This document shows positions 44,950 through 50,672 of a stretch of 64,000 nt of DNA, in pieces. Location of the stretch: IMG/VR virus record IMGVR_UViG_3300050143_000020, positions 1,984 through 65,983 of that record. One strand, given 5' to 3'. Positions within the stretch are counted from its first letter, which is position 1. Each line of letters starts with the position of its first letter. A program made the translations under genes and the position numbers. The notes beneath the pieces are model-generated. The model saw nothing but the letters and a program-made list of their open reading frames with translations, did not search any database and was not told the DNA's origin. Source of the DNA: a virus.

Positions 44950-45391
44950 GAAAGCAAAATATCTTTCTGAGATGTTAGACGAAGCAAATAAAGCAACTGA
45001 TCCTGTCCAATGCTTGAAAGATTTCATTGCACAAGATCCTCGACTAACATCCATTCTAGGATATGCAATCAATCCGAAGTGGAACATCTCAACTGTTCTT
45101 CCGGATGGGGTTCCGCCTTACACAGAATCGGATCTCCCTCTTGGTATGGCAGCTCTCGATTTGCTGAAGCTACATAGCAAGATCTACATCATGTTCAATC
45201 CTGAATTGAAGCAATTCAAGAAAGAAGAATTCTTCATCAAGTGGATAGAAAGCATGCATCCAACCGATGTTGGAATTTTTATTGCAGTGAAAGACCAAAA
45301 TCTGGAGTCTTTGTATCCAAATTTGACTAAAACTGTTGTACACTATGCACTCGGTTGGACTAAGGAACAGTTCGACTCCTTGTTTGTTTGA
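44933..45391 (+). CDS. Conserved T4-like hypothetical protein (DUF6433-like)
   Basis: LP.G.PPY....P.G; K.E.FFI...E.MHP.D....I.VKD. Confidence 0.65.
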   Translation: MTQLNKKAKYLSEMLDEANKATDPVQCLKDFIAQDPRLTSILGYAINPKWNISTVLPDGVPPYTESDLPLGMAALDLLKLHSKIYIMFNPELKQFKKEEFFIKWIESMHPTDVGIFIAVKDQNLESLYPNLTKTVVHYALGWTKEQFDSLFV

Positions 45392-45398
45392 GGTTATC

Positions 45399-45929
45399 AT
45401 GAATCTTGATCTTGTTATGAAATTTGCGCATAATCCTGTTCGTAATTATGCTATTCCTGGACTGACTTCTTGGATGATTTCGAATTCGCCAGAAGGAAAC
45501 ATCCGGATGTTTGATATGACTCGAGATCATATAGAACCAATCGTTGCTCATAGCCATCGATTCAACTTTCATTGCATTGTTCTGGAAGGCGAAGTTGAAA
45601 ATATTTTGTTCAAGCAATCTATGGATGGAGATCTTTATTCTGCTGTCTATCAAACATATAATGGCTCGATTGGTTCTTATAAGACAGAACGATCAAATCT
45701 TCATATTCGATACGTTCAAATTTCTCAGAAATACAACAAAGGAGATCAATACTCAATGTACTCTGACGAAATTCATTCCATCAGATTCAAGAAAGGAACG
45801 AAAGTTCTATTCTTCGAAGGCCCAGATGTCGATGATAAGAGTATTATCATAGAACCTATTGTTGATGGCGAACTCATCGAAACATTCAAAGTTGAACCAT
45901 GGATGTTCAAGAAAGACATTAATGAGTGA
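45399..45929 (+). CDS. Cupin-like hypothetical protein
   Basis: HSHRFNF.C.VL.G.V.N; Y.M..DEIHSI. Confidence 0.55.
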   Translation: MNLDLVMKFAHNPVRNYAIPGLTSWMISNSPEGNIRMFDMTRDHIEPIVAHSHRFNFHCIVLEGEVENILFKQSMDGDLYSAVYQTYNGSIGSYKTERSNLHIRYVQISQKYNKGDQYSMYSDEIHSIRFKKGTKVLFFEGPDVDDKSIIIEPIVDGELIETFKVEPWMFKKDINE

Positions 45930-46077
45930 AGAATTTAAAATCCTGACAGATGCACAACATGCTCTTCAGGCTCCTTATATGTACATCGGATCTACTTCTG
46001 TTGAAGAGCAAGAAGTGGTTACTTTCGGTGAGACAAAGAAATTTAACATTGTTCCTGGTCTACTGAAAATCATTTGA
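45922..46077 (+). pseudogene. Stranded 51-codon 5' fragment of the topoisomerase II large subunit
   Basis: MSEEFKILTDAQHALQAPYMYIGST...IVPGLLKII* aligns with the N-terminus of 47215..49026 and stops just before the catalytic E..N box. Confidence 0.85.
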
Positions 46078-47122
46078 ATTTACAATTTTTAAAATGATGT
46101 CTCAGCATTCCTCCTGCATATCCCTCTTTGCCGCAATGATTACATATCATCTTTTCTTTTGAATAGTTGTTTCCTTTTAGATTTAATTCTTTTATCAAAG
46201 GATCGTTTTTATTAAGACGATATCTATTTCCTTGATCATCTTTGAATATTGTTATCCCTTTCAGTTTTTCTTTGATTTTAGGAGATACCCCTTCTATAAA
46301 TGTTTCCGGTTGTTGTCCTTTGAAGTGCCATTTTGTATCTAGAGATATAGGATCGTAATACGCAGTCTTGCCATTTATACTTTTTGTGTTCGGAGATCCT
46401 AGAATCCAGTTCTCTGGTGGAGTTTTATTCTTGGATATTCTTTGTGTTTCCATAGTGTTCGGATCATACCATATTCTAGATCCATTCATAACTTCTATAT
46501 GAGACGGGTGTCCGCGTTTCCAGTTATCTGGTAGTTTTATAGAAGATTTATCTATATTTTTTGGAATACGCAATACTGTCTCTTCCATAGTGATTTCGTT
46601 GTGGATTTTGATACTTGCGTATCTAGACCCTCGTATGTAGCCTTCTGGTATTATTGCGTCTGTATCCTTCTTATTGATTCTTATGAAGTCGAATGTGATA
46701 GGATTGTAATAATGTGCAACAGAATTTGCTTTTCCTATCTTATCTCCGAAATCTTGTTTTAATTTTTCATATGTTCTAGATTTTCTGAAATTTAGTTTTT
46801 CATATTCTCTTGTATTCCAGTTGGTCATTGAATTAAATGCGTATGTCAGATCCCCGCCGTATGTTTTCCACAACATCCAATGAGCAATAAAATGTTGACG
46901 AGCAGTAAGAATAGCTTTATTCCATACGTTTTTATTTAGAGATTTATATTCGATCCACAATGATTTAGGAAGAAAATGGTGCTGTTCTATGTATCCAAGT
47001 TCTTCTTTTGTTTTCGAAGAATTTGATTGACAACAAGCATTGATAAAGTTAAAATACCTCTTAAGATAGTGATCGTTATGAGGTTTAGATGAAAGAATGG
47101 CATAAATATCTATGTTGGACAT
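46070..47122 (-). mobile_element. Free-standing HNH homing endonuclease (MobE-like) with tandem C-terminal modules
   Basis: EQHHFLPKS...N..ILTARQHFIAHWMLWK; four YxP.T...P..W..G modules; terminal CNHC...HHF.NC; opposite strand to its neighbours. Confidence 0.88.
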
Positions 47123-47159
47123 AGTTGTCTCCTTGATAACGGTTAAAGAAATGTCTAAA

Positions 47160-47201
47160 GGCCATGGGAACTGTCAATTCCGCGATGGTCATTCTTATTT
47201 A
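47160..47201 (-). promoter_or_regulatory. Late promoter TAAATA plus leader hairpin of the HNH gene
   Basis: Minus strand: TAAATA..GACCATCGCGGAA-TTGACAG-TTCCCATGGCC, then AAGGAG RBS. Confidence 0.6.
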
Positions 47202-47214
47202 GTGAAGAGGAAAC

Positions 47215-49026
47215 ATGTCAGATTTTAAAATTTTGAATGATAGAGAGCACGTGCTACTTAGAAGTGGCATGTACATTGGATCAACTTCTCTAGAAGAAGT
47301 TTTTGGTATCGTTAATTTCAAATTCCAATCAAATTCCATTGTTCCTGGATTGATAAAGTGTATCGAGGAAGGATTGCAAAATTCATTAGATGAATTTTCC
47401 AGAACAGATGGGAATTTTGCAAACAAGATTGATATTATAATCGATCAATCTAATGATTTGACAATTTCAATCCAAGACAATGGCAGAGGAATTCCTGTTG
47501 AAAAGATAGGAGATGTATATCGACCAGTTCTTGCATGGACAACATTAAGAGCGGGATCAAATTTTGATGATTCGAATAGAATTGGAGCTGGACAGAATGG
47601 GGTTGGTATTTCTCTTGTGAACATCTTTTCGAAAGAATTTATCGGAGAAACAGATGATGGGAATCAGTCACTGCATCTTAAATGCAAGAACAACATGAGC
47701 GAAATTTCTTTTGATGTCAAGAAATCTAATAATCGAAGAGGTACGCTTGTTAAATTTTCTCCAGATCTAACAAGATTTGGAATTGATAGCTTTACCTTTG
47801 ATCACACAGAAATTATCAGAGATAGACTTTACAATCTATCCATCATATATCCATCCATTGTCTTTACTTTGAATGGAGAAAAGATAAAATTCTCAACAAT
47901 AGAAAATATCGCAAAGAAATTTCATGCAAATGCTATTTCTAGTGATACGAAATCATGTAGGCTGATAATTGCTCCTTCTGGATCGGATCAAGAATTTAGA
48001 TGTATTTCATATGTGAACGGGATCTATGTTAAGAACGGAGGTTCTCATGTAGATTATATCATCAGTTCTATGATAAACGAACTGCGTCCGATGATTAAGA
48101 AGAAATGGAAAATTGATGTATCTCCTAATGGAATCAAACAACATATACTATTAGGTTGCTGGACTAGTAAATTTCAAAATTTGAAGTTTGATAGTCAAAC
48201 TAAAGAATGTATCAAAAATTCGAATCAAGAAGTTCAATCTCACTTCAATGACATTGATTTCAAGAAGATTGCCAAGCAAGTGATTGATAACGAAGCAATC
48301 ATCATGCCAATCATCGAAGCTATTCTTTTCAAGAAGGAACAAGAAGAACGTCGAGAGGCTGCTAAACTAGCGAAGCAATCTAAAAAGATTCAGGTTGTAA
48401 ATCATATAGAGGCACAATCCAAACATCCAGAAGAAAAGACATTGTTCTTGACAGAAGGTCTTTCTGCTTGTGGTCCAATTCTTGCTGTTCGGAATGCTAT
48501 GACTACTGGGTCGTATGCTCTTCGAGGCAAGGTGATGAATACATATGGAATGAAACCAGTTGAAATTCTGAAGAATAAAGAATATTTCGAACTATGTGCT
48601 GTTCTTGGTCTCGAATTTGGTAAGCCTATTGATGGACTGACATACGGAAAAATTGCTGTGATGTCTGATGCTGATCCTGATGGAGATGCAATTTTTTGTT
48701 CTTTGCTATCTTTCTTTTCTGCTTGGCCTGATCTTTTCAAGCAATCTAGAATTTACAGAGTTCGATCTCCTTTGTATGTTTGCCAGAAGAAAGGCAAGAA
48801 GAAACTATTCTATACATATGAAGAATTTCAGAAAGCAAAGCTTGATTCTTCATGGGAAGTGAATTATATCAAAGGTCTTGGTTCTTTGGATCAAGAAGAC
48901 TATGCAGAAGTGATTAATAATCCTGTGCTTGTCAAGGTGTCTGCTTTGGATGATCAAGATATCAATATGATAGATATCGCATTTGGTGATTCATCGGATG
49001 AACGTAAAAAATGGATGTTGGAGTGA
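47215..49026 (+). CDS. gp39: DNA topoisomerase II large subunit (unsplit gp39+60)
   Basis: MYIGS, E...NS.DE, DNGRGIP, GSNF, G.NG.G, LTEGLSA, LRGK.MN, DADPDG, YIKGLGS; GAGG RBS. Confidence 0.95.
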   Translation: MSDFKILNDREHVLLRSGMYIGSTSLEEVFGIVNFKFQSNSIVPGLIKCIEEGLQNSLDEFSRTDGNFANKIDIIIDQSNDLTISIQDNGRGIPVEKIGDVYRPVLAWTTLRAGSNFDDSNRIGAGQNGVGISLVNIFSKEFIGETDDGNQSLHLKCKNNMSEISFDVKKSNNRRGTLVKFSPDLTRFGIDSFTFDHTEIIRDRLYNLSIIYPSIVFTLNGEKIKFSTIENIAKKFHANAISSDTKSCRLIIAPSGSDQEFRCISYVNGIYVKNGGSHVDYIISSMINELRPMIKKKWKIDVSPNGIKQHILLGCWTSKFQNLKFDSQTKECIKNSNQEVQSHFNDIDFKKIAKQVIDNEAIIMPIIEAILFKKEQEERREAAKLAKQSKKIQVVNHIEAQSKHPEEKTLFLTEGLSACGPILAVRNAMTTGSYALRGKVMNTYGMKPVEILKNKEYFELCAVLGLEFGKPIDGLTYGKIAVMSDADPDGDAIFCSLLSFFSAWPDLFKQSRIYRVRSPLYVCQKKGKKKLFYTYEEFQKAKLDSSWEVNYIKGLGSLDQEDYAEVINNPVLVKVSALDDQDINMIDIAFGDSSDERKKWMLE

Positions 49027-49028
49027 AT

Positions 49029-49295
49029 ATGAGTGTTTCTATCTCTGCGGCTGTTGTTGTTGGTCTTCGTAGAAATGAATTCGAAGATGCTGACAAATTG
49101 GATGAATTATTGGACAACGGTGAGTTATGTATGTATGCTCCTTATTATGATGGATGGCAAGAAGCTATCATCGGTATAGAGCTTTATCGTGGACAGTTTG
49201 AATTTGATGGAGTTAAAGTCATTGAAAAATTCGTTGAATTCCATAACTTGACAGGACAACATGGAAAACTTTTCGTTGCTCCTGATGTTTATTGA
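49029..49295 (+). CDS. Hypothetical protein
   Basis: GGAG RBS before ATG 49029. Confidence 0.65.
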   Translation: MSVSISAAVVVGLRRNEFEDADKLDELLDNGELCMYAPYYDGWQEAIIGIELYRGQFEFDGVKVIEKFVEFHNLTGQHGKLFVAPDVY

Positions 49296-49304
49296 GGATT
49301 GATT

Positions 49305-50672
49305 ATGTTAGATGAGCTTTTTGAAGATGAAGCAAAGCCAGTAAAATCAGAAGTAAAGATCATTCGATCTGGAACATCTGTTAAGAGTTTGATCAATGTA
49401 GACTATCGTGGTTATGCGATGTATGTTCTTGAACATCGTGCGATTCCATCTGTGATCGATGGATTCAAGACATCTCAACGTAAACTGTTCTATGCCATGC
49501 AAAAGAATGGCGGAAAGAAGATTAAGCTAGCCGAACTCGGTGGTAGTCTTTCTTCTTATGGATATGCACACGGAGAATCATCTGCACAAGCTGCTGCTGT
49601 CAACATGTCTCAAGAATGGGCAAATAACATTGCGCCTTTCATCGGACATGGGAACTTTGGAACTCGTTTGATCCAAGAAGCAGCTGCACCGAGATACATC
49701 TATGCGACAATGAATCCTTTAGCAGAAAAGATCTTCAATGACAATGATGTTCTGAACAAAAATGAAGATCCAGATGACGTAGAACCACATCACTATCTAC
49801 CTATCATCCCTTGGGTACTTTTAAACGGGATTAAAGGTATCGCCGTCGGGTTTGCTGTTGATATACTACCTAGGACACCTAAAGCGCTAATCCAAGCCTG
49901 TAGAGAGTATATTTCAACTGGCTCTATCAAGATTGATCTTGTTCCTTCGTTCCCATCTTTCAGAGGAGAAGTTCGAAAGATTGAAGATGGCAAATACATG
50001 TCTGTCGGTGTCATTGAAAAGGGACTGCGCAACTCTTATGTGATCTCAGATCTTCCATGGGGTCATGATCGAGAATCGTACTTCAATCATCTTGTTGCAA
50101 TGCAGGAAGATAAGAAGATCAATTCTTTTGAAGATCACTGTGACAAAACTGGTTTCAATTTTGTTGTGAAGATGGATCCAGAACAAAGAACTAAAGCAGA
50201 AGTTGATCTGATCAAATACTTCAAGCTGTCTAAGATTCATACAGAAAATTACACAACTCTTGATGAGAATGGTAAACTTAGAGTATTCAATCATGTGAAT
50301 GAAATCATTGCATATTTTTGCAACTACAGAATCAAGAAGAAGAAAGAACAGCTGGATTTCAATGTTCAGAAGATTCAAGATGATCTGGATTTTTTACTTG
50401 CCAAGCAATTGTTCATAGATCGTGTTTTGATATCCGGTGTTCGTGAAGTCTCGACATGGAAGCTTGATGTATTCAAGTCTTGGATTCTTGAAATCGTGAA
50501 GAAGAAAGATTTTGTCGATTCCTTATCAAAGACTCCTGTATACAAATTCACATATGATGAAATTCAGGCTCTAGAAGATGAGATTTCTAAGAAGACTATT
50601 CTATTGGAAGAAGCAAAGCAACAGGTATCAGATAAAGTTCTTGTTGCAGAAATGATATCACTGAAAGTATGA
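49305..50672 (+). CDS. gp52: DNA topoisomerase II medium subunit
   Basis: RAIPS.IDGFK..QRK, YAHGE.S, GNFGTR...AAAPRYI, GIAVGFA. Confidence 0.95.
   Translation: MLDELFEDEAKPVKSEVKIIRSGTSVKSLINVDYRGYAMYVLEHRAIPSVIDGFKTSQRKLFYAMQKNGGKKIKLAELGGSLSSYGYAHGESSAQAAAVNMSQEWANNIAPFIGHGNFGTRLIQEAAAPRYIYATMNPLAEKIFNDNDVLNKNEDPDDVEPHHYLPIIPWVLLNGIKGIAVGFAVDILPRTPKALIQACREYISTGSIKIDLVPSFPSFRGEVRKIEDGKYMSVGVIEKGLRNSYVISDLPWGHDRESYFNHLVAMQEDKKINSFEDHCDKTGFNFVVKMDPEQRTKAEVDLIKYFKLSKIHTENYTTLDENGKLRVFNHVNEIIAYFCNYRIKKKKEQLDFNVQKIQDDLDFLLAKQLFIDRVLISGVREVSTWKLDVFKSWILEIVKKKDFVDSLSKTPVYKFTYDEIQALEDEISKKTILLEEAKQQVSDKVLVAEMISLKV

Follow-up and report, generated by a model that had tools for sequence, protein, structure and literature searches.

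Organization of the Locus

The window analyzed here is a stretch of 64,000 nucleotides (nt), positions 1,984 to 65,983 of the 70.7-kb IMG/VR record IMGVR_UViG_3300050143_000020, which belongs to an uncultured T4-like phage. In this window, a predicted free-standing HNH homing endonuclease gene lies in reverse orientation between a short remnant of a topoisomerase II large-subunit (gp39-type) gene and a complete large-subunit gene. The remnant, called the stump below, is a plus-strand open reading frame (ORF) of 51 codons (45922-46077) with the translation MSEEFKILTDAQHALQAPYMYIGSTSVEEQEVVTFGETKKFNIVPGLLKII, beginning with MSEEFKILTDAQ and ending with IVPGLLKII, and it matched PHROG 543 'DNA topoisomerase II large subunit' with an E-value of 1.4e-11. 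The HNH gene, coding for 350 amino acids (aa), occupies the minus strand (46070-47122) and its stop codon (TCA on the plus strand, 46070-46072) falls within stump codons 50-51. A 92-nt leader (47123-47214) with an AGAGGA ribosome-binding site separates the divergent starts of the HNH gene and of the 603-aa topoisomerase gene (47215-49026, plus strand), in which the HATPase_c, DNA_gyraseB, Toprim and TOPRIM_C domains were all detected by Pfam. The stump and the N-terminus of the full gene shared 23 of 48 residues (48%; pairwise E-value 2e-13). All the elements described in an earlier interpretation made from the letters alone (the sequence-only reading), i.e., the 51-codon stump, the inverted HNH gene with its stop codon inside the stump and the complete topoisomerase gene with a new ribosome-binding site and a roughly half identical N-terminus, were recovered at the positions given there. 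Its claim of an intact gene obtained without splicing also held: the HNH gene lies antisense between two ORFs and outside any intron or intein, the downstream gene is complete in its domain architecture, and a search of Rfam with positions 45000-49500 gave no match at E ≤ 1, so that no intron was seen.

The arrangement was identical or nearly identical on six contigs from four JGI samples and two Logan runs, and the stretch was present in at least 24 leaf-litter runs, which probably come from one campaign. Found in so many assemblies and samples, it is therefore no assembly artefact. Megablast with the region found no match among cultured phages, whose nearest topoisomerases were about 44% identical.

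The Reverse Gene Is Predicted to Encode a Mob-like Homing Endonuclease

The product of the reverse gene comprises an N-terminal HNH domain, four YDP...P.GW-like repeats and a C-terminal zinc finger of the CxxC...HxxxC type. It matched PHROG 655 'homing endonuclease' (1e-28) and PHROG 12434 'HNH endonuclease' (3e-9, and 1e-12 for the homologue from a second phage, phage B, described below). Its nearest homologue, P0122, has 349 aa and is 65% identical. In tblastn searches the N-terminal third matched annotated homing endonucleases, including a MobE-annotated gene and I-LimIII, the latter encoded antisense between the pieces of the LIMEstone1 DNA polymerase gene. Residues E46, H48, H49, P52, N68, Q76, H77 and H81 were invariant across 37 aligned homologues, and the residues of the HNH catalytic motif (the His general base, the Asn and the metal-binding His) are present in the window protein. 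In the AlphaFold2 model, with a predicted local distance difference test score above 90 over residues 1-100, strands 45-49 and 69-73 and helix 74-88 form a modelled beta-beta-alpha fold around the motif. The best match among the AFDB/Swiss-Prot models was weak (probability 0.97, E-value 0.037) and corresponded to the psbA intron-1 ORF of Chlamydomonas moewusii, which codes for the H-N-H enzyme I-CmoeI. On the basis of family matches, motif conservation and the model, the reverse gene is predicted to code for a Mob-like HNH homing endonuclease. The possibility that the C-terminus of the protein is a mere antisense reading of leftover N-box codons was rejected, as homologues located elsewhere end with the same zinc finger.

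The Stump Derives from a Resident Allele

The backbone to which the stump was compared is that of contigs without an HNH gene (L002, L013, L015 and the P0004 contigs), whose topoisomerases are 55-58% identical to that of the window. Together with L005, they are referred to as clade C. Apart from L005, all share a neighborhood of gp32, a gp13-like gene, small ORFs, DUF6433, thioredoxin, topoisomerase and gp52 genes, and in all of them the thioredoxin stop codon overlaps the topoisomerase start. The gp52 protein of the window was 65% identical to that of L005 in the MAFFT alignment (68% by BLASTP), 54-58% to those of the other clade C loci, 38-45% to outsiders and 28% to the most distant one, L023; in the gp52 tree the window grouped with L005 and L013. 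Judged by the neighboring genes and these gp52 comparisons, the window backbone belongs in clade C, nearest to L005.

Among 35 topoisomerase N-termini, the five best matches of the stump were the five members of clade C (57-67% identity), with a mean of 42% to other lineages. The new N-terminus of the window gene showed 47-55% identity to the same five sequences, and its best matches were outside clade C. That the stump should be closer than the new N-terminus to HNH-free relatives was the comparison on which the sequence-only reading had staked itself beforehand, and this is what was found. The identity values show the stump to be a remnant of a resident clade C allele.

The placing of Logan contigs of four runs on the region revealed a minor contig in the leaf-litter run X14 (906 nt, depth 9.4 versus 342-379 for the main phage) that matched positions 46011-46074 at 58 of 64 nt (91%) and then ran on as GAAGAAATATACCAGAACGCCGTCGATGAA, which encodes EEIYQNAVDE. 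No other sequence came near this similarity to the stump (at most 68% nt identity). Judged from its sequence, the contig holds an uninterrupted allele of clade C type; the rebuilding of this allele had been proposed in the sequence-only reading. Further searches did not extend it: exact-pattern scans of IMG/VR and JGI metagenome contigs, which may lack records close to the window, did not find an uninterrupted window-type allele, a 30-mer of the minor contig was absent from IMG/VR, and phmmer with the 51-aa stump against 1.84 billion representatives gave no intact N-terminus closer than those known, because clustering at 50% hides close kin.

The minor contig departs from the window exactly after codon 51. 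The last resident codon of the stump is ATT (46072-46074) and the stump stop codon comes from cassette DNA. In the HNH ORF, the junction falls within the last sense codon, and the stop codon belongs to the resident DNA. In the uninterrupted allele, the next codons are the tandem Glu codons (EE) with which the N-box of the GHKL ATPase begins. The insertion thus adjoins the ATPase E..N box, at which the sequence-only reading had placed it, and lies directly upstream of the tandem Glu codons, not inside the box. In this region the imported allele reads KCIEEGLQNSL versus KIIEEI(Y/I)QNSV in clade C, with further silent changes, and such differences could make the imported allele resistant to cutting.

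The Complete Large-Subunit Gene Is Chimeric

The identity of the window topoisomerase to its relatives changes along the gene. Over residues 52-330 it was 47% identical to clade C (46-49%) and 57% to 27 other lineages, the clade C genes themselves being 45% identical to these 27 lineages in this part. Over residues 345-560 it was 72% identical to clade C (69-75%) and 49% to the others. The cumulative score changed sign at residue 348, which places the crossover near codon 348 and divides the gene into a 5' segment of non-clade-C ancestry (codons 1 to ~348, 47215-48258) and a resident-type 3' segment (codons ~349-603, 48259-49026). In the tree of the 5' part, the window paired with phage B (support 99) outside the clade C group (support 100), and in that of the 3' part both were placed within the clade C group. 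By identity profiles and separate trees of the two halves, which the sequence-only reading had called for, the large-subunit gene is shown to be a chimera of a foreign 5' part and a resident-type 3' part. That the cassette had brought a 5' gene segment and restored an intact gene agrees with this chimerism; the length does not, the segment spanning about 348 codons and not about 51. The co-converted tract is about 1 kb long. The best-conserved DNA stretch begins at the right crossover (codons ~348-355), and a crossover common to the window and phage B need therefore not be inherited.

A Second Phage, a Second Endonuclease Family and Decay of the HNH Gene

Phage B is represented by contigs L006/L007 and L003. 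In L006/L007, the thioredoxin gene is followed by a topoisomerase stump of 50 codons, the reverse HNH gene (P0122), the leader and the topoisomerase gene; L003 (P0001) contains the full phage B gene and its overlap with L006/L007 is 94% identical at the nt level. The phage B gene is also chimeric, and its junction nucleotides are the same as in the window (ATC A, TCA being the HNH stop codon). The upstream flank of phage B was 91-94% identical to that of L005 at the nt level, with the match stopping 16 nt into the stump, and the 3' part of the phage B gene was 88-97% identical to that of L005 at the same level. In the topoisomerase gene, BLASTN of phage B against L005 gave no match before codon ~288; identity per 60-nt window rose from 63% to 97% at codon 355 and remained at 83-97% beyond it. 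In the 3' part of the gene, the approximately unbiased (AU) test rejected the pairing of the window with phage B (p = 0.018).

At the same slot, L005 carries a different reverse, antisense gene (L005:2917-4066) coding for a 376-aa protein, homing-endonuclease-like by profile match (DUF7487; PHROG 3339, 1e-11). It directly precedes the topoisomerase gene and follows a stump of 5-8 codons, MTEEF(SI)KIL, the first 16 nt of which equal those of the phage B stump. The identity of L005 to L013 rose from ~60% to ~80% near codon 237. With an HNH gene in the window and phage B and a DUF7487 gene in L005 at one slot, two endonuclease families have therefore each overwritten the gene start in clade C, and the DUF7487/PHROG 3339 family appears to work like the HNH cassette.

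The slot was free of an endonuclease gene in L002, L013, L015 and the P0004 contigs, and deleted for it in L028. The latter, a 542-nt contig of phage B type with 1.6x coverage, was turned up by the phmmer search with the stump; the whole HNH gene is gone, and stump codon 37 is followed by the final 25 nt of the leader, with a 9-nt repeat, T[T/C]CGCGATG, at the join. Smaller changes were observed in other contigs. One extra C in a C-run at 46287, found in 14 contigs, shifts the HNH reading frame and leaves 281 aa without the zinc finger, and L011 additionally lacks positions 46147-46171 (a 25-nt deletion). Frameshift, deletion and gene loss are the expected late stages of a homing-endonuclease life cycle.

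Leader, Neighboring Genes and Sequence Variants

The leader contains two blocks of 23 and 27 nt that are identical in phage B, the flanking coding DNA being only about 70% identical. A hairpin at 47160-47190, with the arms GGCCATGGGAA and TTCCGCGATGGTC, is kept in phage B with a different loop; the fold energy of the leader RNA was no better than that of shuffled sequence (z = 0.30). A candidate sigma-70-type promoter, TTGACA-17-TAAAAT, was noted by consensus match only (11 of 12 positions) on the plus strand inside the HNH ORF (47027-47055), opposite to its coding direction. Phage B keeps the -35 hexamer and has TAACAT at the -10 position.

Upstream of the stump, a plus-strand ORF of 176 aa (45399-45929; PHROG 8313, function unknown) ends with a stop codon region overlapping the stump ATG by 8 nt. 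This ORF takes the slot of the thioredoxin gene found in every relative examined. L011 carries 12 substitutions and a 2-nt insertion, all within the last 50 nt of this ORF (45833-45880), and the cluster looks like a further recombination boundary just left of the stump.

Downstream of the large-subunit gene, a 94-aa ORF (49011-49295) without a family match precedes the gene for the gp52-type subunit. Clade C relatives have no such ORF, and no relation was detectable between it and a 92-aa ORF at the same position in L014. The last ~40 residues of the large subunit (48900-49026) were only 46-51% identical to any relative. The diverged gene end and the 94-aa ORF may reflect a second exchange at the 3' end.

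Contig L004 equals the window except for a 44-nt deletion (48553-48596) in the topoisomerase gene, which results in ORFs of 454 and 145 aa; L004 may represent a defective variant or result from faulty assembly, and the contigs of run X24 break at the same place. The Logan contigs of runs X20 and X24 are interrupted at about 45826, 46605-46722, 47977, 48273 and 48590, with the depth in between about half of that in the flanks, which hints at co-existing haplotypes differing across the cassette. In some other phages (P0225, P0229 and L029), N-terminal topoisomerase ORFs stop or shift frame at or just past PGLLKI or the N-box. The locus L029:1021-2717 contains ORFs of 78 and 466 aa and lacks the ATP-binding segment. 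These three may be more scars at the N-box site or sequencing errors.

Origin of the Arrangement

Very probably, a free-standing HNH cassette, consisting of the HNH gene, the leader and a foreign topoisomerase 5' part, homed into a resident gp39-type gene. This explanation draws directly on the chimerism of the large-subunit gene, the derivation of the stump from a resident gene, the precise junction, the recurrence of the arrangement in other phages and the decay of the HNH gene. The process is intronless homing with co-conversion of about 1 kb. In the proposed course of events, the HNH enzyme would cut endonuclease-free clade C alleles near codon 51, and the cassette would be copied into the resident gene during repair of the double-strand break. 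Resection of the right end would reach, at about codon 348, the first stretch with enough similarity for invasion of the donor. Copying would run from there to the left, taking in the foreign 5' segment, then the leader and finally the HNH gene. On the left, the broken end would be joined with little loss, by an illegitimate or short-homology join that kept codons 1-51. Synthesis-dependent copying from the right end is the favored repair pathway. The imported allele would escape further cutting, and the product would be a redundant 51-codon stump, an endonuclease gene and an intact chimeric topoisomerase gene, with no need for an intron, an intein or a gene split.

Several points weigh against this explanation. 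The end of the stump could mark the site of an illegitimate join and not the cut site. The HNH protein had no match in Pfam, NCBIfam or PDB sequence searches, and its model gave no match at E ≤ 0.001 in Foldseek against PDB and no Z ≥ 5 in a wide VIA-align search against PDB. The uninterrupted window-type allele is known from 64 nt plus 30 nt only, with no close HNH-free genome. A region-restricted protein search for the donor of the 5' segment returned nothing above 60% identity except phage B (76-77%). Finally, for the 5' part, a deep sister relationship of the window and phage B to clade C was not rejected by the AU test (p = 0.46). Hence the word 'foreign' denotes an ancestry outside the clade as sampled, not a demonstrably distant one.

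A quite unlikely alternative is that a single ancient insertion has been inherited vertically, with the stump kept because it is useful, either in translated form, as a 51-aa peptide corresponding to the ATPase N-terminal arm, or as a left homology arm by which the cassette stays mobile. It would account for the same junction nucleotides in the window and phage B, for the similar identity of the two in the 5' (76%) and 3' (77%) parts of the gene and for the retention in both stumps of an ATG that overlaps the stop codon of the upstream gene. The comparison of the two stumps themselves (pN, the proportion of nonsynonymous differences, 0.26; pS, the synonymous counterpart, 0.74) gave a dN/dS of about 0.09, the same as for working clade C N-termini. 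The divergence therefore arose under protein-level selection, which speaks for a kept stump, and a single old insertion followed by neutral decay of the stump was rejected on this ground; yet so low a ratio is equally expected if the divergence predates truncation and took place inside working genes. Identity between the two stumps is 56%, against 57-76% to different intact clade C genes, as expected of the remnants of two residents. Their divergence fits two residents truncated separately and fits a selected stump as well. Vertical inheritance is also opposed by L005, which is about 90% identical to phage B at the nt level in the flanks and has neither the HNH gene nor the foreign 5' part, so that at least one recent exchange is needed anyway, and by the low-coverage contig L028, which lost 13 stump codons without obvious harm. 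It is unlikely but conceivable that the stump is a maintained part of the element, either a translationally coupled 51-aa GHKL-arm peptide interfering with a competitor topoisomerase or an obligatory left homology arm, in a slot repeatedly overwritten by the two families.

Ordinary recombination between diverged phages, with a swapped topoisomerase 5' half and the HNH gene as a mere passenger, is very unlikely. T4-like genomes are mosaic, the causal role of HNH cutting is an inference, and the first conserved stretch is where the right crossover is found, as expected of any recombination. A plain homologous swap, however, would not leave a stump behind; the slot is taken by two endonuclease families unrelated to each other, and each is accompanied by a stump and an imported 5' segment of its own; and the junction abuts a catalytic motif. 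Catalytic motifs are typical homing targets. The presence of two copies of one gene's start 1.3 kb apart could also suggest a local tandem duplication that later diverged, or an assembly chimera. This is extremely improbable and was rejected: the copies belong to different lineages, being 48% identical to each other with the stump at 57-67% to clade C; in phage B the 3' part matches L005 at 83-97% nt identity per 60-nt window while the 5' part has no BLASTN match; and the arrangement recurs in many independent assemblies.

Relation to Known Systems and Implications

The closest described parallel to homing of the HNH cassette comes from fungal mitochondria, in which mobile-ORF (mORF) gene hybrids are known for atp6 of Allomyces macrogynus and for atp6, atp9, cox2 and nad3 of Glomus (PMC3630166). 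In these hybrids, the endonuclease ORF carries a foreign C-terminal piece, and the displaced native piece stays and clusters with close kin (PMC3630166). As in the window, an endonuclease ORF sits in a protein gene, the foreign gene end has become the expressed copy with the native remnant beside it, and the native piece, unlike the inserted one, clusters with close relatives. The three marks of such a hybrid, a duplicated gene end, a foreign copy in use and a displaced native copy, were all found in the window, mirrored to the 5' end. With replacement at the 5' end, what the element has to provide is a ribosome-binding site, and probably a promoter as well, instead of a stop codon. The window differs in further respects: the endonuclease gene runs antisense with no in-frame fusion, a double-stranded DNA phage is the host and a replication gene the target, the imported tract measures about 1 kb versus 50-300 bp in fungi, and the enzyme is of the HNH and not the LAGLIDADG or GIY-YIG type. 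The kind of event is well described in fungal mitochondria, and the window holds a phage variant of it.

In T4, the free-standing endonucleases SegB, SegF, SegG and MobE take part in intronless homing, marker exclusion and co-conversion (PMC2330249, PMC2790892, PMC2988022). The window resembles these cases in having a free-standing gene beside a conserved gene of a T4-like phage, with flanking DNA co-inherited, and its HNH domain is similar to those of Mob-type and other HNH homing enzymes of phages. The T4 endonuclease genes lie between genes and are flanked by homology at either side, which leaves no remnant, whereas in the window the left boundary lies inside the target coding sequence and a stump remains. 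Insertions that split genes have been described for T4 mobA in gene 39/60, Aeh1 mobE in nrdA and a seg-like gene in gene 43 of phage 25 (PMC2988022). These likewise involve a Mob- or Seg-type gene inside an essential gene of replication or nucleotide metabolism, in one case that of the same topoisomerase subunit. They leave two complementary polypeptides that reassemble, in contrast to the window, where the stump is redundant and the complete downstream ORF has its own residues 1-50 along with all four domains. A 2010 review of T4 mobile elements treats intragenic endonuclease genes as splitting insertions only and does not mention duplication or remnants, and no phage description of such a replacement of a gene start with a stump was found in the literature searched.

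The clean, HNH-invaded, HNH-decaying, HNH-deleted and second-family-invaded loci form a natural series, in which the life cycle of the element and the N-box as its target site can be tested. If the stump is maintained, the slot between the thioredoxin and topoisomerase genes would see repeated replacement, each of the two endonuclease families overwriting the alleles imported by the other. The cassette would represent a third way for a phage to tolerate an insertion in an essential gene: the element brings a replacement start and the gene is restarted, without an intron, an intein or a split. Such cassettes would drive the replacement of alleles over about 1 kb in a core replication gene between diverged phages, and phylogenies of phage topoisomerases based on this single gene can therefore mislead.

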